Shown: piece by piece, positions 1,378 to 11,784 of the stretch
How positions within the stretch are numbered: the first letter of the stretch is position 1
Layout of the letters: every line of letters begins with the position of its first letter
Assembly: GCA_964643335.1 (NCBI GenBank)
Contig: CAZXSQ010000191.1
Span: 1 to 11,963 of the forward strand
Direction: 5' to 3'
Source of the DNA: an uncultured bacterium
Lineage (GTDB): Bacteria; Hinthialibacterota; Hinthialibacteria; Hinthialibacterales; Hinthialibacteraceae
DNA length: 11,963 bases
Notes under the pieces: model-generated
Seen by the model: only the letters and a program-made list of their open reading frames with translations
What the model was told of the DNA's origin: nothing
The model's database searches: none
Program-made: the position numbers and the translations under genes

Positions 1378-1385
1378 AAAGGAGG
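1378..1385 (+). promoter_or_regulatory. Strong Shine-Dalgarno sequence (AAAGGAGG) 8 nt upstream of the EncFtn ATG. An AT-rich putative promoter lies between about 1260 and 1375.
   Basis: The sequence aaaaaggaggtatagggaATG is seen directly. TTGACT at 1266-1271 is a candidate -35 box. The promoter boxes were not assigned with confidence. Confidence 0.6.
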
Positions 1386-1393
1386 TATAGGGA

Positions 1394-1774
1394 ATGCCAA
1401 CCGGCTATCATGAATCAGAAGCTGAACTTTCTCAAGAGACCAAAGAAATCCATCGAGTTTTAGCGAGTTTTATTGAAGAATTGGAAGCAGTGGATTGGTA
1501 TCACCAACGGGTGGACGTTACCCAGGATGAGTCTGTCAAGGCCATACTGGCCCATAATCGTGATGAAGAAATCGAACATGCCGTGATGTGCCTCGAATGG
1601 CTGCGGCGGCATATGCCAAAATTCGACGAAGAACTCAGAACCTATCTCTTTACGAGAGACCCGATTACTGAATTGGAAAATGGAGAGGAAGAAGGCGAAG
1701 AAACTCAAACTGAATCCCAAGGGAAACAAGGGGGGACGCTCGGAATAGGAAAAATCCAAAAGGAGGAAAAATAA
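1394..1774 (+). CDS. Encapsulated ferritin-like cargo protein (EncFtn family), 126 aa, with a C-terminal encapsulin targeting peptide (…GGTLGIGKIQKEEK).
   Basis: The translation ...IEELEAVDWYHQRVDV...ILAHNRDEEIEHAVMCLEWLRRH...LRTYLFT closely matches the remembered Rhodospirillum rubrum EncFtn (…EELEAVDWY.QRVD…ILAHNRDEE.EHA.M.LEWLRR…LRTYLFT). It has the E…E..W entry site and the ExxH (EIEH) ferroxidase-centre motifs. The acidic, Gly-rich C-terminal linker ends in TLGIGKI, matching the family-1 cargo-loading peptide consensus (SLGIGSL / GGDLGIRK type). A strong Shine-Dalgarno sequence is present. The stop codon TAA abuts the downstream ATG. Confidence 0.88.
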   Translation: MPTGYHESEAELSQETKEIHRVLASFIEELEAVDWYHQRVDVTQDESVKAILAHNRDEEIEHAVMCLEWLRRHMPKFDEELRTYLFTRDPITELENGEEEGEETQTESQGKQGGTLGIGKIQKEEK

Positions 1775-2581
1775 ATGGTTGATATTCTCAGACGCTCTTT
1801 TGCACCTATAACAGAAGATGCCTGGAGTGAAATAGAAGATACCGCCAAGGATGTGCTGCGCACTTTTTTAACCGCTCGGAAACTCGTCGATGTCGATGGC
1901 CCGAATGGGTGGGAACAGGCGGCGGTCAATCTCGGCAAGCTCAAGGTAGTTCAAAATGAACCCATTGAAGATGTTCACTGGGGGAAGCGTGATGTATTGC
2001 CTTTAATAGAGTTGCGAATACCTTTTTTCCTGAACCAAATGGAAGTGGATACAATTGAACGCGGTTCAAAGGACGCTGACCTTGAACCTCTGGAAACAGC
2101 GGCTAAAAAAATCGCCAAATTTGAAGACATGGCCATCTTCAATGGATTTAAAGATGGAGGAATCGGTGGAATTCTGGATAGCTCGCCTCATTCCGCCATT
2201 CAATTATCCAATGAAGCCGATCAATTTCCAAAATCGGTTGCTGAAGCAGTAATCGTCCTCAAACAGGAGGGAATACCCGGTCCATATTCATTGGTGCTTG
2301 GGACTAAACCTTATGAAATCTTGAACCGGACAGTCGGATGTGGTTATCCTCCACAAAAGATGATCGATCAGCTACTTCTCGGTGGAGACACGCTATGGAG
2401 CCCCGCTGTAGAAGGAGGTGTGCTTATATCGGCACGAGGCGGAGATTTCGAATTAACCATTGGTCAAGATTTGTCAATTGGTTATGCCAACCACGACCGT
2501 GAGAAAATCGAACTTTATTTAACTGAAAGTCTTACATTCAGAGTGATTGAACCGGCAGCCGCCGTTCCGTTCACCTTATAA
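1775..2581 (+). CDS. Family 1 encapsulin nanocompartment shell protein (HK97-fold, linocin M18-like), 268 aa.
   Basis: The translation aligns along its whole length with the remembered Thermotoga maritima encapsulin (LKRSFAPLTE / [40 protein letters not shown] / [24 protein letters not shown]; C-terminal TFRVIEP / TFQVVNP). The ATG follows the EncFtn stop codon immediately (taaATG), and the AGGAGG Shine-Dalgarno sequence lies inside the end of the upstream gene, indicating translational coupling. Its size fits a T=1-type shell. Confidence 0.93.
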   Translation: [268 protein letters not shown]

Positions 2582-2601
2582 GATTACATCATCAAAAAAA
2601 G

Positions 2602-2646
2602 AAATTCCCCCTCATACTTGAATAAAATGAGGGGGAATTTTTCTTG
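2602..2646 (+). terminator. Rho-independent terminator closing the encapsulin operon. It has a perfect 14-bp stem (aaattccccctcat / atgagggggaattt), an 11-nt loop and a T-tract. An A-tract upstream makes it potentially bidirectional.
   Basis: The inverted repeat and the following tttttcttgatttt are seen directly in the sequence. Confidence 0.85.
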
Positions 2647-2760
2647 ATTTTATATAATCCTTGCTATCCACTTCAAAAATTTCCATAAATTAGCCATTAT
2701 AAAGAAGCTTATTGTATACAACTACTATCTTTTCGCCGCAGCGGCAAAGGGAGGACAACA

Positions 2761-4254
2761 ATGCGCACTACTCCTATTGGCATAGCCATGTTAAATGATG
2801 AACGGGAACATGTATGGAAAGAAAATAATCCGGAAAATATGTCCGTTGTGAACGCATGGGCCGACTTTATCAAAAAGAACCTTAAAAACATCGATGATTC
2901 GGCTCCGGAAATCATTACCGGCAGTGAGATTATCACTGGTGTCCGGTCAGCTCAGAAAGTTGGTGAAGAACTCGCTCGAGCCAATGTAAAACAAGTCATC
3001 ATGCTGTACAACGTTTGGAATTTCCCTTTTCTTTGCTGGCCTTTTTTGAACAGTATTGGGGATGTGCCGGTTTTAAGCCTATCCAACAATAATGGAGAGT
3101 TTCCGGGAAATGTCGGTCTTCTAGCCACTGATGGAGCTCTACGGCAGGCGGGAAAGCGTACCCACAGGATTATCGGCGATTTAGAAGATAAAAAAACACA
3201 AAACAAGGTATTAAGTTGGATTCGCGCCAGCCAGGCTGCTACGACGATCAAAAATGAGGTTTTGGGAAGCTACGGCGGGCATTCGATGGGTATGGAAACC
3301 GGCTTTGCTCATTTGACCCCAACATTGAAATGCCTCGGCACGACTGTCCGTCAAATCGATCAGCTGTGGCTGCTGAAAGTCATGGAAACCGTCGATAAAA
3401 ACGAAGTAAAAGAAGGCCGGGAATGGTTCGAGAAACTCTTAGGGAAACGGTTAAAATACGACGGCAAGATGTTGACTCCGGAAACTCTGGAAAACCAGAT
3501 TGCTCTTTATTTAGCCATGCGGGAAGTCAATGAAGACAAAGGCTTTGACTTCTGCGGTCTCAAGGGGCAGCGTGAATTGACGGAACATGTCTGTCTGGGA
3601 GATGTTCCCGAGATGCTAATGAACGATCCTTACGATTGGAATGGGCCGAAAGAATCCATCGTCTGCGCAACCGAAGCGGATGCCTATGCCGCCGTGACAA
3701 TGCAGCTGATGAAATATATCAGTGGAGGTCTTCCAACATTGTTCATGGATGTGCGGCTGTATCACCCTGATCTGGACATATGGGATTGGTGCAATTCAGG
3801 AAACCACGCCAGCTGGTTTGCGGCTAAAAGCATGAAACCTGAGAACAATTTCAAATCCATCACCTTCCATCCTGCGCTTGAATTTTATTTCAAAGCGGGG
3901 GGGGCATCGGTTGAGTTCGATGCCGCACCAGGGCAAATGACATTTGCGCGGCTGGGATTGTGGGATGAGAAGCCGTATATGGTAATCGTGCGTGGTGAAT
4001 CTGAAAGACTTCCCGCCGCTCAGCGCAAAAAACTCAATAATATGACCAACCCGACCTGGCCGCACGTGCACGCCAAACTGGAATGCACTTTTGATGAGTT
4101 TGCCGAAGTATTTCCATGCAATCATGTTTTAGGCGTGGATGGCGACAAGGTACAATCGCTGGTATACCTTTGCGAGATTTGCGGGATCGCCCCTGTTGTT
4201 CTCGGCAAAACCAAAGAAGGTCTGGAAACACCTATTTGGGAGCGAGTACGTTGA
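2761..4254 (+). CDS. L-fucose isomerase (FucI-like) sugar isomerase family protein, 497 aa.
   Basis: The translation matches remembered E. coli FucI blocks: [29 protein letters not shown] versus [35 protein letters not shown] versus [18 protein letters not shown] versus NSTWPTTWFAPRL. The conserved Glu (ATE) and Asp (DVR) are present. It has a strong Shine-Dalgarno sequence (GGGAGG). It is shorter than canonical FucI (about 590 aa). No sugar kinase, aldolase or transporter partner lies in the window. Confidence 0.8.
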   Translation: [497 protein letters not shown]

Positions 4255-4980: not shown

Positions 4981-6790
4981 ATGTGTGGACTTTGCGGCAT
5001 ACTATACAGCGACAGACAAAAACAGGTCGAGCCAGAATTATTAAGAAAAATGACCGAGGTCATCAGGCATCGAGGTCCTGATGATGAAGGCCAATTAATC
5101 GACGGCTCCATAGGGTTGGGTTCACGAAGGCTGTCGATTTTGGGATTAAATGATGGCCATATGCCGATGTCTACGGAAGATGGAAACATTTGGATCGTTT
5201 ATAACGGTGAGTTGTACAATCACCCTGAAATCAAGCACAACCTATCTTCAAAAGGCCACAAATACCGCACCGGATCCGATACCGAGAGTTTCCTGCATCT
5301 ATATCGGGAATTCGATATTGAGTTTCTTGAGCATACCCGAGGTATGTTTGCTCTGGCTTTGTGGGACCGTCCGCGACAACGGCTTATACTAGCCCGGGAC
5401 CGGCTGGGGATCAAACCTTTATATTACCATCTTGACAGCAAAGCCATTCGTTTCGCTTCGGAGATTAAATCCATACTTTGCGATCCGGAGGTTTCTAGAG
5501 AAATCGATTATGAAGCGCTGAACTTATTTTTGGCTTATCTTGCCACGCCTGCACCTTTTACAATGCTAAAAGGAGTCAAACAGCTTTTCCCAGGTGAAAT
5601 GTTAATCTATCAAGAGGGACAGGTTCAAACACGAACATATTGGCAATCTTCCGAAACGATTATCCCTAATGATATAAAAAACATTGACTCTACAAAACAC
5701 GAACTGGGAGATCGTTTACGCGAAGTGGTTCAAGAACATTTGCTGTCCGATGTGCCGGTCGGGGCGTTTCTTTCAGGGGGGATCGATTCGGGCATTCTGG
5801 TGGGATTGATGAGAGAATTTCTCGGTCCTGGATTTAAAACATTTTCAATAGGATTTCAAGGACACACACTTTTTGACGAAACTCAGCAAGCCCAGTTAAT
5901 GGCTCGGCGTTTTGAAACAGACCATCATGAGCAAATTCTCGCTCCGAATGACTTACTGGAAGCGCTTGATGATATAATTTGGCAGTTGGATGAACCGCTC
6001 GCCGACTCTTCCTGCCTACCGGTCTACTATGTCTCCAAACTGGCATCGCAATATGGAAAAGTGGTTCTTTCAGGTGACGGGGGAGATGAAATCTTTGCAG
6101 GATACCGCAAATACCAGGCGGAATACTATCGCCGTTTTTGTTCTTGGCTTCCCTCCCCTCTTTTAAGATACGTCTCTCATTCAGTCGTACCCCATATTCC
6201 TGAATCCAGGGCCAATTATTGGATGGACCTGCTGCGGCAAGTGAAAAAATTCTTTCGGGGATTCGATCCGGATGCTTTTGAACGTCATTTGGGATGGGCG
6301 ATTCATTTCGAGGATGCCTTGCGGCATCCTATGTTGAATCCGGACATTCGAGAACAAATCAATTTCAATCAACCACGTGATTATCGCCGAAAATTGTATG
6401 ATGAATTACCTCACCAGGAGGAATTGAACAGGATGTTATGGGTGGATTTGCGTCACGGTTTACCGGCGGATATGCTCATGGATTCTTAAGGAAACATTTA
6501 AAGACCTTCTTCCACCTGAAATTTTACACCGCAGAAAACACGGCTTTGATGTCCCAGTGGGTGAATGGTTTAAACATGAATTACGAGAAGTTATAGAGGA
6601 TGTGTGTTCGGAGGCTACCACGAACCGCCGGGGGCTGTTTAACCCCCGGCAGGTCCGCCGCATTATAATGGATCATCAAGACGGGAGAAGAGATTATAAT
6701 AATCAATTATGGATTCTTCTTAGTTTAGAACTCTGGCAACGCCGGTATCTTGATTCAACGCCTGGTTCGATTCCATCCCGGCCCGTTTAA
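4981..6790 (+). pseudogene. asnB: Asparagine synthetase B (glutamine-hydrolysing, Ntn-amidotransferase class), apparently disrupted. Frame 1 stops at 6489 (…LPADMLMDS*) and the C-terminal segment continues in the +1 frame (…LKETFKDLLPPEILHRRKHGFDVPVGEWFKHELREV…LWILLSLELWQRRYL) up to 6790.
   Basis: The N-terminal MCGLCGI (Cys2 nucleophile), SGGIDS PP-loop and the typical C-terminal blocks are present. At the junction, about 45 residues normally carrying the conserved K-DRMSMA-LE-R-PFLD motif are absent and the frame shifts by +1. The Shine-Dalgarno sequence is poor. The combined size would be about 640 aa, like B. subtilis AsnB. Confidence 0.7.
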
Positions 6791-7718
6791 CGGGGATGGC
6801 TTTTATGATTCCCAAGCGGGATATATTCCCTTTTTTGCTTCGTTTTTCTTCCTCAGTTGTATAGATCACTTTGGCAATAATTCGATCATTGGCGTTCAAC
6901 GTGTTTTTATTAAACACCTCTTTGTTTACCCCCTTTCGCTTGAACCAAAGAAAACCATCGTAACTGTGATAGCGGAAAGTAAAGCTGTTGCCGGTGTAAG
7001 AGATATTGGAGAGTTCAACCTCAATTAATTCTCCTGGTATAACCCGTGGTTCCAAATAAATGATTTTTTCATGCCTTTTGTTATCGGTCAGCATCAAGCC
7101 AGGGATGTTGGTGATCTTTAAATTCAATTGATCACCGATATTGACATCGGAAATCTGCTTGATAAAACAACGATATCGCTGACCCAATGCATCCGTCAAG
7201 TTAAATCCGGGATTCCCTTCCAGTATCCGCTGATTATTCGTTTTTGAACGCCGCTGATCCACAACGAAGGCCACTTTGGGATTTATAAACGTGTTGATAT
7301 TTACTTCATCCGGTTCGATATAATCTGAATTGTTGGTTGCGAGAATGTCCACGATTTCTTCACAAATACTATGATTGGAACATTCTTCCGGCTTATGGTC
7401 ATGGTGCAAAAGAATCTCATGAGCCATATCATGCACAATCTTCGTCACGCCAAAACTCCACGCATTCCGCAAACGGTCTACCCATTGCTGTTCTTTTTCT
7501 TCGGACCAATCATCTTCGCAGTGAACACGCTCATTTAAATAAGAAAAATGCTCGGGCTTGAGCAATTCATAATATTTGGTCTTCCGCACTTCAAATGTTT
7601 GTTTGGCCAGTTTGAAACACCCTAATTCAAGCTGTTCCAATATCCGCTCGACGTAATAAAGTGAAACCTGATCATCGTCTTTGGTAGTTTGATAACTTTG
7701 TAGTATCCTGCTTGTCAC
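6720..7718 (-). CDS. Protein of 332 aa with an N-terminal SprT-like zinc-metallopeptidase-type domain whose motif is variant (…VTKIVHDMAHEILLHHDH…: HDxxH-x4-HH rather than HExxH-x5-H), followed by an uncharacterised beta-rich C-terminal domain of about 170 aa.
   Basis: The ORF has a GTG start and a Shine-Dalgarno sequence (AAGAGGTG, 7-nt spacer). Its N-terminal segment (ILEQLELGCFKLAKQTF…YYELL…NERV) and the His cluster resemble the E. coli SprT HELAHLLVWKHFG block. The function is inferred by eye only. Confidence 0.55.
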   Translation of the reverse strand: MTSRILQSYQTTKDDDQVSLYYVERILEQLELGCFKLAKQTFEVRKTKYYELLKPEHFSYLNERVHCEDDWSEEKEQQWVDRLRNAWSFGVTKIVHDMAHEILLHHDHKPEECSNHSICEEIVDILATNNSDYIEPDEVNINTFINPKVAFVVDQRRSKTNNQRILEGNPGFNLTDALGQRYRCFIKQISDVNIGDQLNLKITNIPGLMLTDNKRHEKIIYLEPRVIPGELIEVELSNISYTGNSFTFRYHSYDGFLWFKRKGVNKEVFNKNTLNANDRIIAKVIYTTEEEKRSKKGNISRLGIIKAIPVKRAGMESNQALNQDTGVARVLN

Positions 7719-7952
7719 AACTGAACACCTCTTAAAGATTTGTTCAACAAAGAGTGTAACAACAAGGTTCTTTTCGTATATAATTTACTTGTAAAAACTT
7801 GTACAAAGAAATATTTTGATTTTTTTTGATCCGTGTGAACTAACCCTTTTGTCAATTGGAAAACTTGATATTCTTTAACTGAAATTTCCATCTTATAAAA
7901 TTTATATATATTCGCTTAAGTATAAGTATGTTTTAAAGCCGGATGTGAAGAT
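7719..7952. promoter_or_regulatory. AT-rich divergent intergenic region, presumed to hold the promoters for the minus-strand SprT-like gene and the plus-strand micro-ORF / GT-C gene. Candidate elements are TATATAAT at about 7786-7793, TTGTCA at 7849-7854, and TTGATA…TATAAA at about 7866-7900.
   Basis: The calls rest on sequence composition and approximate sigma-A-like hexamers. The spacing is not canonical for any single pair, so no promoter is assigned precisely. Confidence 0.3.
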
Positions 7953-8120
7953 ATGAAAAAGGAATTGTGTTCAGCCATCAGTATAGCCAAACATAGAAAA
8001 TCATGTCCCTTCTGTGGCCGAAAGTGCCATCCGGCGCCTCAATTCATTTCTCAACCAATTCCCTCTGATCCTCTTTCTCGCGGGATGCACATACGTGAAG
8101 ATAAGGAGAATTCTGAATGA
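7953..8120 (+). CDS. Possible 55-codon Cys-rich micro-protein (MKKELCSAISIAKHRKSCPFCGRKCHPAPQFISQPIPSDPLSRGMHIREDKENSE). Its stop codon overlaps the start of the downstream GT-C gene (ATGA).
   Basis: The ORF is not in the supplied track, being below the size cut-off, but is open in frame 3. It contains a C-x11-CxxC-x3-CH cluster. It has a weak Shine-Dalgarno sequence. The stop overlap of 4 nt is typical of translational coupling. It could alternatively be a non-coding leader. Confidence 0.25.
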   Translation: MKKELCSAISIAKHRKSCPFCGRKCHPAPQFISQPIPSDPLSRGMHIREDKENSE

Positions 8121-11100
8121 AAAATCGTTCTAAACGTGGAGAGCCGCGCCTAACCAAGGCGCTTTCCGACTCTTCCCGTTATTGGCCGATCATTTCAATT
8201 GTGATTTTGGCTGTATGCATTCGATTATATGGTGTCACAAATCCGCTTTATGATTTGAATTACTGGCGCCAAACTGAAACGGCGGCTTTGGCCAGGAATT
8301 ATCATGAAGACAATCTCCCATTTCTTTATCCGGAAGTGGACTGGATTGGCCCTCACGGCCATGCCGAAATGGAATTTCCTCTTTATCCTTATATTCTGTC
8401 ATGGATTTACAGAATTTTATGGCCATCCGAAATATTCGGGCGATTACTCACTATACTCTGTTCTGCCGGTGCGATACTGGCCATTTGGGATATTGTGAGG
8501 CAAACGATCAACCGGCGCATTGCGCTATTAGCCGCCGCGTTTTTTGCCGCATCCCCCCTAGCGGTTTATTTCGGCCGGACGTATCAGCCCGATATGATGA
8601 TGGTTTTCTTTTCCACGGCATCGATCAGCTGCCTTCTACGCTGGATGGGAGAATCAAAAAATGTCTGGTTTTATTGCTCAGCGATTTTATTGGCTTTGGG
8701 CGTTTTGTTGAAACCTCCCTGCCTGCTTGTTGTATTACCTTTGTCTTGGATTTTGTATAAACAAGAAGGTCAAACATTTATCTTAAACAAAGAGAACTGG
8801 ATATATGCCTCGATAGTCATCGTGCCGGCCATTTTATGGTATGCCCATGCGCAAACTTTTTTTGAAGAAACAGGGGCGACCTTTATGTGGCACTTTAAAA
8901 ACTTTTCTGTGGAACGTCACCTTTTTTCTGTCTGGAGTTCTTTTGAATTCTGGACCACCATTGGTATGCGTTTCACTGATGGCATTCTTGCGTATGTGGG
9001 TTTACTGCCCTTTATTATAGGGATTTGGCGGTTGTTTTATCCTTGGCCTGGCCGTGCCTTGCTGGGCTGGTGGGTAGCCGGAGTTGCTGTATTTTACCTG
9101 GCCATTCCCGGTCATCATATCGGGCATACCTATTACTCACTATTGGCGATCCCACCTGCAGCTATCATTACAGCCATCGGATGCGACAAACTTGGACATT
9201 GGTTGAACTCCTATTTGCATTTTTCCTACAATTGGATTGTGCTGCTCCCTCTTATCACTGCAATTTTAGGATTCAGTCTGCTTATTTCCCGCAACTATTA
9301 TGGCAAACTCTATTATTACTACGACGATGCTCTGGCCCTGAGACAGCTTGTTCCTGAAAATGAACTCATCGCCGTCAAAGACGACTTGATGCATACTCCG
9401 GAGTTTTTTTATTTCATCAACCGGAATGGATGGCATCTCGCCAATTATCCTGCAAAAGGAACGGATAACTCGCCATGGATAGAAAAAGTTAGGAAGAAAG
9501 GAGCGGCCTATTATTTTGGATTAACTGAATTTCAAGGCAACCATCCGCTTCTTTATCTTCAAGACTATTTACACGGTCAATATATATGGGATCATTATGT
9601 TATCCAGGACATTGGATTCAAATATTTTGCCGCCCGTTTGGACCAACCGATTTATGGCAATCATCTTTTTTCTCAATATAAAAATAAAAAAATAGCCATA
9701 CCGGATATGGCCAGAAACGCTCTTAACGATCCTTCAATTCAAACCGTTTCATTATATGAGTGGCAGTCAGCCGATGCGATATTGCTGGATTTTCACAAGG
9801 TTCATCCTGAAGAAATGAACTCTATTCGAACTAATTATGAAAATGCTGCTGCAAATGGTTTTGTGGTGACTCATCAGGAATCCGGAAGATTGGTTCTTGA
9901 AAAAAGTGGTCACATTAAGCCGGTCACCGGTTTGATCGATTCGGTGGGATCATCTCAACTTGTACTTACTCCGCAACTTCCAAATGGAAGATTTTATTTA
10001 GGCTATTTTGAAAAAGGGCGGCATCGAGTCAGTTTTCGTTTCAGCCAGACAAGTTTTCCCGATCCGGTAACCCTTGCGGTTGAAGACCGCTTTGGGAATA
10101 CGATTCAGCAGCGTGTTTTGCAACCGGTTCACTTTCCACATCTCAGCGAAGGTGAACGGCCAGAGTGTATATTTACCCTTGACCAGCCTTTGGTCTTGTA
10201 CGCAGCCGCTTATACGGAAAAAGGCTTAATCCGTCCGGAATCCATTGTCTGGATGCCTGACGTGCAGTGCGTACAAACAGAAACGGTTATTCAAACTGAG
10301 CAGCTTCACACAAACATGGCCATGACGGTTACTGATGCCAAAGCTAACCGCAACAAGGCCTTGTGGGGATGGACAGAGGATGAACCTCGGTTTATCTTCC
10401 ACGGTCCTTTTTTCCATTACCCTTCAGGATTATATGAGATGGCTTTTCGTCTCAGAGCACCGAACAAATGGAATCCCGGTACCATAGAAGTGGGTGTTTA
10501 TGCAGACGGCAATACCACATTGGCACATCAAGAACTATATCCTTATTACTCCGGTGAAAATTCTCTCGGTAGGAAATACTCCAAAATACCTTTATCAGCG
10601 AGAATCCGCTCCACGTCAACCATTGAAATGAGAGCACTGCTGCATCCGAACGCCGAAGCGTTGATCGATACGATTCATGTTCACCAGCAAGCGAAAACAT
10701 TCAAACCGCGTGATTTGAATAATCCCTTGTGTCTTATTCCACGTGATGGACAGACAAAAATGATTACGCCGGACGGTAGAATCATCGGCCAAGCAGGAAC
10801 AATTCAACGAAGAGTACGGCTGGTGTCTTCACCCATCGCTTGGGCGGCGTGGAACCAAAATACAGGGGAACTGTATATCGATGAAGCCGGACGTATTATC
10901 GGTGAGAAGAATGAGGAATACTGGTCAATTCAAAGAGCACTTGAAGAAAAAATTATCAATTTTAATGTATCGCCAGACGGTTTATCGATAGGAGTCCTTA
11001 CCGATAAAGGCCGTGTTTTTATTTGGCATCAGGGTGAGATTGAAACTTTCACTATCCCAGCAACCGACTTTCCATTCAGAGACCTGCTGGTATTGGGTAA

Positions 11101-11392
11101 AGGTAAAGCCCTCGTGTTGGATAGGAATGGGGGTGTTATCCCGGTCGGGGAGGCACAAAAAATCGAGGGACTGCCTGTATTTTGGTCGGATGTGGCCCGT
11201 GCGTTTATTCATCATCCGGACGGTATTTATGTTGTAGACTGTCTTGGCGCGATTCATTCGTCATCCGGCTTAGAACCAATCCACTCACCGCTTTACAGGC
11301 CGGAAAATTGGATTATTGACGCCTACCGGATGTCGAACGGCATTTGGGTATTTTTATCCAAAACCGGCGAGATTCATACTTTCCAAGAATAA
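8117..11392 (+). CDS. Polytopic GT-C-fold membrane glycosyltransferase of the ArnT / PMT (GT39/GT83-like, undecaprenyl- or dolichyl-phosphate-sugar dependent) type. It has about 11-12 transmembrane helices in the first 480 residues, fused to a C-terminal extracytoplasmic region of about 600 aa that ends in tandem beta-propeller-like repeats. Total length is 1091 aa.
   Basis: The transmembrane helices are seen directly. The first extracytoplasmic loop (NPLYDLNYWRQTETAALARNYHED…PHGHAEMEFPLYPY) resembles the ArnT/PMT loop-1 signature (DE.RYAEIAREM….YFEKPPL.YW). A strong Shine-Dalgarno sequence (AAGGAGA) is present. The C-terminal 250 residues show recurring units of about 40-45 aa (TPDGRIIGQAG / DEAGRIIGE / DKGRVFIWHQGE / DRNGGVIPVGEA / PDGIYVVDCLGAIH / SNGIWVFLSKTGEIH), reminiscent of RCC1-like beta-propeller blades. 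Confidence 0.8.
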   Translation: MKNRSKRGEPRLTKALSDSSRYWPIISIVILAVCIRLYGVTNPLYDLNYWRQTETAALARNYHEDNLPFLYPEVDWIGPHGHAEMEFPLYPYILSWIYRILWPSEIFGRLLTILCSAGAILAIWDIVRQTINRRIALLAAAFFAASPLAVYFGRTYQPDMMMVFFSTASISCLLRWMGESKNVWFYCSAILLALGVLLKPPCLLVVLPLSWILYKQEGQTFILNKENWIYASIVIVPAILWYAHAQTFFEETGATFMWHFKNFSVERHLFSVWSSFEFWTTIGMRFTDGILAYVGLLPFIIGIWRLFYPWPGRALLGWWVAGVAVFYLAIPGHHIGHTYYSLLAIPPAAIITAIGCDKLGHWLNSYLHFSYNWIVLLPLITAILGFSLLISRNYYGKLYYYYDDALALRQLVPENELIAVKDDLMHTPEFFYFINRNGWHLANYPAKGTDNSPWIEKVRKKGAAYYFGLTEFQGNHPLLYLQDYLHGQYIWDHYVIQDIGFKYFAARLDQPIYGNHLFSQYKNKKIAIPDMARNALNDPSIQTVSLYEWQSADAILLDFHKVHPEEMNSIRTNYENAAANGFVVTHQESGRLVLEKSGHIKPVTGLIDSVGSSQLVLTPQLPNGRFYLGYFEKGRHRVSFRFSQTSFPDPVTLAVEDRFGNTIQQRVLQPVHFPHLSEGERPECIFTLDQPLVLYAAAYTEKGLIRPESIVWMPDVQCVQTETVIQTEQLHTNMAMTVTDAKANRNKALWGWTEDEPRFIFHGPFFHYPSGLYEMAFRLRAPNKWNPGTIEVGVYADGNTTLAHQELYPYYSGENSLGRKYSKIPLSARIRSTSTIEMRALLHPNAEALIDTIHVHQQAKTFKPRDLNNPLCLIPRDGQTKMITPDGRIIGQAGTIQRRVRLVSSPIAWAAWNQNTGELYIDEAGRIIGEKNEEYWSIQRALEEKIINFNVSPDGLSIGVLTDKGRVFIWHQGEIETFTIPATDFPFRDLLVLGKGKALVLDRNGGVIPVGEAQKIEGLPVFWSDVARAFIHHPDGIYVVDCLGAIHSSSGLEPIHSPLYRPENWIIDAYRMSNGIWVFLSKTGEIHTFQE

Positions 11393-11397
11393 TCTGA

Positions 11398-11784
11398 TTA
11401 TTCCTGGACTAACGCGACTGCCTCAACCTCAACATCCACTCCTTGCGGCAAGGCTGCCGCTTGTATGCAGGCTCTGGCGGGTTTGCTATCACCAAAATAA
11501 TTTGAATAGATTTCATTGAACACGTTAAAATTAGCCAAATCCTTCAGGAAAATAGTCACTTTCACAACGTCATTCAATGTTGAATCCGCCGCTTCAACAA
11601 CACTTTTTACATTTTCAAGCGCCTGTCTGGCTTGTTTTTCAAAAGAGTCCATTTCCAGTTGACCGGTTGCAGGATTCAACGGAATCTGGCCGGATACAAA
11701 CAAAAAGCCATTTGCTACCACGCCGGGGGAATAGGGACCTACTGGTTTTGGGCCTTCGCTGGGTGCGATTAATTTTTTTGCCAT
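11398..11784 (-). CDS. ridA: RidA family reactive-intermediate (enamine/imine) deaminase (YjgF / TdcF / L-PSP), 128 aa.
   Basis: The translation …GPYSPGVVANGFLFVSGQIPLNPATGQLE…VKVTIFLKDLANFNVFNEIYSNYFG…ARACIQAAALPQGVDVEVEAVA matches remembered RidA sequences almost motif for motif. The Shine-Dalgarno sequence AGGAGA lies 6 nt before the ATG. The gene is convergent with the GT-C gene, with only 5 bp between the two stop codons. Confidence 0.92.
   Translation of the reverse strand: MAKKLIAPSEGPKPVGPYSPGVVANGFLFVSGQIPLNPATGQLEMDSFEKQARQALENVKSVVEAADSTLNDVVKVTIFLKDLANFNVFNEIYSNYFGDSKPARACIQAAALPQGVDVEVEAVALVQE

Follow-up and report, generated by a model that had tools for sequence, protein, structure and literature searches.

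Does a pair of adjoining genes in an uncultured bacterium encode a complete encapsulin compartment for iron, what kind of shell would it build, and how might the pair be expressed? We addressed these questions for a contig of 11,963 nucleotides (nt) (CAZXSQ010000191.1; the whole stretch is referred to below as the window), in which two adjoining plus-strand open reading frames (ORFs), at 1394-1774 and 1775-2581, code for proteins of 126 and 268 amino acids (aa). We conclude with high confidence that these genes form a two-gene family 1 ('classical') encapsulin operon of the EncFtn (Flp) cargo type, in which an encapsulated ferritin-like ferroxidase is followed by its shell protein, and that their products would make up an iron store with a shell of triangulation number T=1. 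More than 2,000 family 1 systems have been catalogued, and EncFtn/Flp cargos, which occur in 23 bacterial phyla, are the second most common cargos in this family (PMC8346489).

Gene layout and translation signals

The EncFtn gene (1394-1774) and the shell gene (1775-2581) are joined without a spacer: the EncFtn stop codon TAA (1772-1774) directly abuts the shell start codon ATG at 1775. Both start codons are preceded at a distance of 8 nt by the Shine-Dalgarno sequence AGGAGG, located on the plus strand at 1380-1385 for EncFtn and at 1761-1766, within the EncFtn ORF, for the shell gene. Because of the TAA|ATG junction and the Shine-Dalgarno sequence inside the upstream ORF, the two genes, as judged from this layout, are most likely co-transcribed and translationally coupled. 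A previous sequence-only reading of the same DNA had described the two ORFs, their junction, the embedded Shine-Dalgarno sequence and the strong one in front of the operon, and all of them are present, the two ORFs at the positions that it gave.

The EncFtn cargo protein

The 126-aa protein belongs to the EncFtn family by two profile searches with hidden Markov models (HMMs). It matches the Pfam family PF22277 (EncFtn-like) with 138 bits (cut-off 27) and the NCBIfam model TIGR04535 (ferrit_encaps, 'encapsulin-associated ferritin-like protein') with 152.2 bits (cut-off 125). Its score against NF058679, the model of the EncB family from the T=3 system of M. xanthus, is 72.2 bits and stays below the cut-off of 90; by these scores, the protein is related to EncB but falls outside the EncB subfamily. 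Among solved structures, the best cargo match is the H. ochraceum EncFtn (PDB 7oe2, E = 1e-33), and the R. rubrum EncFtn (5da5) is matched with E = 1.6e-29.

The alignment with R. rubrum 5da5 runs without gaps from residue 5 to residue 95 at an offset of 3 and allows a direct transfer of the metal-site residues. The ferroxidase center, formed in R. rubrum by Glu32, Glu62, His65 and Tyr39, corresponds to E29, E59, H62 and Y36 of the window protein. The entry site (Glu31 and Glu34 with Trp38) corresponds to E28 and E31 with W35, and the outer site (His57, Glu61 and Glu64) to H54, E58 and E61. Thus, the window protein has each of the ten residues assigned to the metal sites of R. rubrum EncFtn, and these residues are invariant among the four closest cargos. 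The roles of these residues in R. rubrum have been established by a crystal structure and mutagenesis (PMC5012862; reviewed in PMC11202242). The sequence-only reading had pointed to an entry site of two glutamates and a tryptophan (E28, E31 and W35) and to the ExxH ferroxidase pair (E59 and H62), and these are borne out by the alignment.

Linker and targeting peptide

The Pfam match stops at residue 87, and beyond this structured EncFtn domain the protein continues into a C-terminus of the form ELENGEEEGEETQTESQGKQGG-TLGIGKIQ-KEEK. The acidic Gly-rich linker ELENGEEEGEETQTESQGKQGG (residues 93-114, encoded at 1670-1735, plus strand) has 8 Glu and 5 Gly among its 22 residues, and its counterpart in the alignments is the disordered C-terminal part of the H. 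ochraceum and R. rubrum-type cargos. The targeting peptide TLGIGKIQ (1736-1759, plus strand), after which the KEEK tail follows, aligns with SLGIGSLRQE of the 7oe2 chain, the 'encapsulated ferritin localisation sequence' of H. ochraceum; the terminal LGIG-type peptide that had been read from the sequence is present. The EncFtn class is defined by a disordered C-terminal linker of ~10-40 aa that ends in a targeting peptide (PMC11202242), and the window cargo shows the same organization, with the 22-residue linker followed by TLGIGKIQKEEK. The LGIGK stretch is invariant in the four closest cargos.

A six-frame scan of the whole window found no other LGIG-type motif near a C-terminus. EncFtn had been considered probably the only cargo encoded here; this stands in so far as no second C-terminal tag occurs in the window, and it holds for the 12-kb contig alone, because secondary cargos of family 1 systems can be encoded elsewhere in the genome.

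The encapsulin shell protein

The 268-aa protein (1775-2581, plus strand) matches the NCBIfam equivalog NF041155 (encap_f1, 'family 1 encapsulin nanocompartment shell protein') with 293 bits (cut-off 100), the match covering residues 5-266 and the complete profile (positions 1-261 of 261). It also matches PF04454 with 285 bits (cut-off 24.3), so that both proteins of the pair score far above curated cut-offs in the HMM check that had been proposed for them. The best solved shell match is the H. ochraceum encapsulin (PDB 7odw, E = 1.3e-76, 47% identity). The best solved matches of the cargo and of the shell are thus the two partners of one characterized complex, H. ochraceum EncFtn and its shell. 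An AlphaFold model of the shell protein, built from 40 homologues, reached a predicted local distance difference test (pLDDT) score of 95 and a predicted template modeling (pTM) score of 0.90. The modeled protein has an HK97-type fold with an A-domain, a P-domain and an E-loop, and it carries neither the N-terminal extension nor the inserted domains of family 2. Curated HMMs and modeled fold therefore agree on a family 1 HK97-fold shell protein of about 268 aa, as had been suggested.

The HK97 fold is common to encapsulins and phage capsids, and the two are often confused, as a passage of PMC8346489 states. On this ground, the 268-aa protein could be read as the HK97-type major capsid protein of a prophage or a degraded phage, with the ferritin-like neighbor standing there by coincidence. 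We regard this explanation as effectively refuted and give it a negligible probability. The family 1 equivalog recognizes the protein with 293 bits (cut-off 100), all 50 fold matches listed from the PDB are encapsulins, the product of the upstream gene bears a fitting targeting peptide, the gene pair is kept in 82 of 83 relatives (described below), and the window contains no phage genes, tRNAs or repeats.

The protein being an encapsulin, the next question is its T number. The T=1 shells of H. ochraceum, T. maritima, mycobacteria (Cfp29), B. linens and K. pneumoniae match with E = 1e-56 to 1e-77 in alignments almost without gaps. The T=3 shell of M. xanthus (EncA) and the T=4 shell of Q. thermotolerans match with E = 1e-7 to 1e-11, and they are 11-12 residues longer across the aligned span, the extra residues being absent from the window protein. 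In a Foldseek comparison of the AlphaFold model with the PDB, the top 27 matches are all T=1 encapsulins, with template modeling scores (TMq) of 0.83-0.96 and root-mean-square deviations (rmsd) of 1.2-3.0 Å; the top T=1 alignments span 261-267 columns for the 268 residues, and the closest superpositions lie at 1.2-1.5 Å. The T=3 and T=4 shells reach a TMq of 0.79 or less, with rmsd of 4-8 Å. The shell alignment proposed earlier for separating T=1 from T=3 or T=4 thus gives a T=1-like protein in sequence and in modeled structure, and a 60-subunit T=1 shell, like that of the H. ochraceum compartment, is predicted.

A genuine EncFtn-encapsulin pair might still build a T=3 or T=4 shell, as do M. 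xanthus EncA and the Q. thermotolerans protein, since a T number read from sequence is not certain and engineered pore mutants of EncA switch between T=1 and T=3 (according to PDB titles). We consider this very unlikely for the window shell, in view of the far better E-values of the T=1 shells, the 11-12 additional residues of the larger ones and the TMq and rmsd values of the model given above. The cargo points the same way, scoring 72 bits where the EncB model requires 90.

The gene pair in related loci

We compared the window with 83 related loci selected by similarity to its shell protein, which describe the clade of this shell and not all encapsulins; gene order was counted from HMM-aligned starts. 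EncFtn is located directly 5' of the shell gene and on the same strand in 82 of the 83 loci, and in 60 of these 82 the two genes overlap or are separated by 13 nt or less. The cargo ends in an LGIG-type motif in 78 of the 82 loci, the motif being exactly LGIG in 51. The primary cargo gene of family 1 systems lies directly 5' of the shell gene (PMC8346489), and the upstream EncFtn with its LGIG tag in the relatives matches this general organization. A single locus of the 83 (JASGIX010000017.1) has no detected EncFtn ORF 5' of the shell gene.

The three closest relatives examined again have EncFtn directly 5' of the shell gene, with differing flanking genes; therefore, the pair behaves as a self-contained module. 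In one relative, L005 (CAYPPG010000051.1), synteny with the window extends to either side of the operon, which is itself intact. The sequence-only reading had spoken of an autonomous module for iron storage and oxidative stress. Its modular character is seen in the self-contained gene pair of the relatives; its autonomy and function are suggested by homology.

Both window proteins form singleton clusters in a collection of 5.8 billion proteins, in which the closest shells are 60% identical or less. The closest named genomes for the shell are metagenome-assembled genomes (MAGs) labeled Hydrogenedentota, Planctomycetota, PVC group and similar, with identities of 56% or less. The isomerase-family gene located 3' of the operon is 89% identical to its counterpart in a MAG labeled Candidatus Omnitrophota and 80% identical to that of Ca. 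Hinthialibacter antarcticus. A lineage placement based on this gene is only indicative, because the protein keeps 72-76% identity in several different phyla. Searching the literature for Omnitrophota encapsulins gave no papers.

Transcription signals and regulation

The operon is preceded on the same strand by the gene at 403-1230, from which EncFtn is separated by an AT-rich gap of 163 nt. The sole plus-strand promoter candidate in this region is a weak sigma-70-like element, TTCCCA-16 nt-TATCAT (1275-1302), with a 9/12 match to the consensus. The promoter scan gave 7 matches in the region against 4.0 +/- 1.9 expected by chance, which is not above shuffled sequences.

Downstream of the shell gene we found a hairpin followed by a U-rich tail (2600-2651, plus strand). 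Its core consists of 14 perfect Watson-Crick pairs (2602-2615 with 2627-2640) and is extended by one G-U and one A-U pair to 16 pairs (2600-2642) around an 11-nt loop. The predicted folding energy is -26.2 kcal/mol (z = -4.69 against dinucleotide shuffles), and a palindrome search returned the same structure with 19-nt arms that are 89% complementary. The hairpin is followed by the U-rich sequence UCUUGAUUUU; the 11 bases that come after the 14-pair core include 8 U, in an interrupted tract. The hairpin is predicted to be intrinsic-terminator-like, with an atypical 11-nt loop. A scan for consensus terminators, which covers loops of 3-8 nt only, gave 0 sites. We rejected this zero as a true negative, since the 8-nt limit misses a hairpin with an 11-nt loop. 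The operon had been described as insulated by its own Shine-Dalgarno sequence or promoter upstream and by a perfect 14-bp-stem terminator downstream; the Shine-Dalgarno sequence and the hairpin are real, and the promoter is no better than chance.

A second element upstream of the operon is the 24-nt palindrome TAAATGAAATAT|ATATATCATTTA at 1282-1305, which overlaps the -10-like hexamer and lies 89-112 nt 5' of the EncFtn ATG. Its 12-nt arms are 92% complementary; among 2000 dinucleotide shuffles only 0.7% do as well, and the window has just one further palindrome of this kind. No conservation of it 5' of EncFtn was seen in the related loci, the syntenic L005 included, and it does not match a Fur box. 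The palindrome may be an operator, though its membership of the encapsulin system is uncertain. It could be speculated that it binds a lineage-specific non-Fur regulator and that the LGIGK[F/L/I] variant of the tag, which is common to the closest relatives, reflects a co-evolved pairing of shell and cargo particular to this group of uncultured bacteria, the nearest named neighbors of which are MAGs labeled Omnitrophota or Hinthialibacterota. We hold this combined proposal to be improbable; if true, it would describe a modest variant of a known system in regulation and specificity and not a new kind of system.

We also searched for Fur boxes. The best match to an E. coli-type box (GATAATGATAATCATTATC-like) upstream of EncFtn in the window is 12/19, which is reached by more than half of the shuffles, and no enrichment was found across 80 EncFtn upstream regions (the window and 79 related loci), in which the scores equal the shuffled expectation. 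In one relative (GCA_964517495.1), a gene for a Fur-family regulator (3569-4045) is located directly 5' of EncFtn on the same strand, a hint that iron may control expression in that lineage. The window has no such Fur gene.

Proposed function and weight of the evidence

We propose the following mechanism by analogy with the H. ochraceum, R. rubrum and T. maritima systems, from which we infer decamer formation, encapsulation, T=1 assembly, ferroxidase activity and the physiological role. EncFtn would form annular decamers of D5 symmetry, with di-iron ferroxidase centers built at the dimer interfaces from E29, E59, H62 and Y36. The flexible acidic linker would present TLGIGKIQ to a hydrophobic cleft of the shell protein that faces the lumen, so that the cargo would be taken up during the self-assembly of about 60 shell subunits into a T=1 icosahedron of ~24 nm. 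Fe(II) would enter through the shell pores and be oxidized by EncFtn, and ferric mineral would be deposited in the lumen. As EncFtn alone would be unable to store iron, it is the complex with the shell that would serve as a high-capacity iron store and as a buffer against iron and oxidative stress.

This reading is built on features observed directly in the locus: the gene structure, the membership of both proteins in their families, the conserved residues, the tag, the fold, the gene order and the downstream hairpin. Several points weigh against it. The operon is known here from its sequence alone. Its T number is predicted by comparison with shells already characterized, and in other encapsulins the replacement of one residue can be enough to change T (PDB titles). 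No promoter could be distinguished from chance, and transcription independent of the upstream gene (403-1230) is not proven. Iron-responsive control by Fur is not supported by the upstream sequences. Finally, at least one gene on the contig is disrupted, which may reflect assembly quality or gene decay and cannot be fully ignored, although both ORFs of the operon are intact.

Some of these points would also fit an operon that is a decaying or non-expressed remnant, or one whose EncFtn is a minor cargo while the main cargo is encoded elsewhere: an asparagine-synthase-like gene nearby is disrupted, no promoter stands out, and tagged proteins may occur outside the 12 kb of the genome that the data cover. 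We nevertheless judge this to be highly improbable. Both ORFs are full-length relative to the profiles, their catalytic and tag residues are intact, their Shine-Dalgarno sequences are strong, and the locus is intact in the syntenic L005. Moreover, the primary cargo of family 1 systems is the product of the gene directly 5' of the shell gene (PMC8346489), which is EncFtn here.

A family 1 EncFtn-encapsulin operon, as we prefer to read the locus, would indicate a high-capacity iron store in this organism. The sequence is new and fairly divergent and comes from a poorly sampled uncultured lineage, while the kind of system has already been described thoroughly. The operon accordingly matters little beyond annotation and makes no open question testable. 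A possible use is as a further natural pair of shell and tag for the engineering of nanocages.

Neighboring genes and other features

Upstream of the operon, the plus-strand ORF at 403-1230 encodes a 275-aa protein with a hydrophobic, signal-peptide-like N-terminus. A homologue with 39% identity occupies the same position 5' of EncFtn in L005 and was not found there in other relatives. Neither this protein nor the 332-aa product of the minus-strand ORF at 6720-7718 has a significant match to a Pfam, NCBIfam or PADLOC family.

Downstream of the operon, the plus-strand gene at 2761-4254 encodes the isomerase-family protein mentioned above, a 497-aa protein with all three L-fucose-isomerase domains. 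It scores 110-121 bits against NCBIfam fucI equivalogs with cut-offs of 775-850, and represents a shorter, very widely conserved member of the family, with 72-89% identity across MAGs that are labeled with many phyla. In L005, a segment of ~2.5 kb separates the encapsulin operon from the isomerase gene and holds a two-gene cassette (5943-8149 of that locus) that is absent from the window. The cassette consists of a TIR-domain protein (ThsB-like, PADLOC PDLC00434, 83 bits) and a SLOG protein (PF18180 LD_cluster3, 86 bits), and it looks like a small inserted defense-type island. We considered this segment as a second cargo and rejected it, the TIR and SLOG cassette being without an LGIG tag.

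The disrupted gene lies at 4981-6790 on the plus strand and resembles asparagine synthases and PEP-CTERM amidotransferases. The ORF at 4981-6489 matches positions 2-224 of the PF00733 profile, and a shifted frame at 6458-6790 matches positions 266-354, with ~41 profile positions missing and a frame change near 6480-6490. Either the gene has decayed into a pseudogene, or the assembly is in error here.

Further downstream, the plus-strand gene at 8117-11392 encodes a membrane protein of 1091 aa in which a PMT_2 / ArnT-like glycosyltransferase domain is confined to the first ~330 residues; the other ~750 residues match no family. The sole other long palindrome of the window, CCAAGAATAATC-T-GATTATTCCTGG at 11383-11407, spans the stop codons of this glycosyltransferase gene (ending at 11392) and of the convergent RidA gene on the minus strand (ending at 11398). 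With a spacer of 1-3 nt it would make a poor hairpin. The window gave no hits in Rfam and tRNA scans.

Comparison with known systems

The general principle of the proposed compartment, a ferritin-like cargo that oxidizes iron inside an HK97-fold shell, is the same as in the M. xanthus EncA/EncB/EncC system (T=3) and the Q. thermotolerans IMEF system (T=4). Their shells are distant from that of the window, with E = 1e-9 to 1e-11 and 21-25% identity.

The T. maritima system (PDB 3DKT, 7KQ5, 7MU1; PMC8610991) combines a T=1 family 1 shell with an EncFtn-type Flp cargo. Its shell is much closer to the window protein (E = 9e-65, 40% identity, template modeling score 0.90-0.91), and the two proteins are much alike in the N-terminal helix by which the tag-binding cleft is formed. 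The two shells differ at the flavin site. The T. maritima Trp that stacks on flavin mononucleotide (W90 in PMC8610991, the Trp of LDLWELD; we mapped W90 onto the PDB chain numbering ourselves) aligns with Met89 of the window protein (2039-2041), and therefore a flavin site of the T. maritima type is not predicted.

The R. rubrum EncFtn (Rru_A0973, PDB 5DA5; He et al. 2016, PMC5012862) provides the reference for the metal sites, the residues of which are kept in the window cargo; this comparison covers the core domain, as the 5DA5 construct is without the tag. The cognate shell of the R. rubrum type (9ry4, 280 aa) carries an insertion of 5 residues, which the window shell lacks.

The closest solved system for both proteins is the EncFtn:encapsulin complex of H. 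ochraceum (PDB 7ODW/7OE2/7OEU, 5N5F; Ross et al. 2022, PMC8791618), a T=1 shell with four EncFtn decamers inside (PMC8791618). The window derives from a different, uncultured lineage, with ~43% GC, and the operon is represented by its DNA only, unlike that of H. ochraceum. Its linker is more strongly acidic, and its tag reads TLGIGKIQKEEK in place of SLGIGSLRQEG, with Lys-Ile replacing Ser-Leu after GIG. The two systems have in common an EncFtn of ~130 aa with all ferroxidase and entry-site residues, a disordered linker, a C-terminal (S/T)LGIG peptide and a T=1 shell protein of ~266 aa, predicted as T=1 in the window, and the H. ochraceum shell superimposes on the window model with a template modeling score of 0.94 and an rmsd of 1.5 Å.

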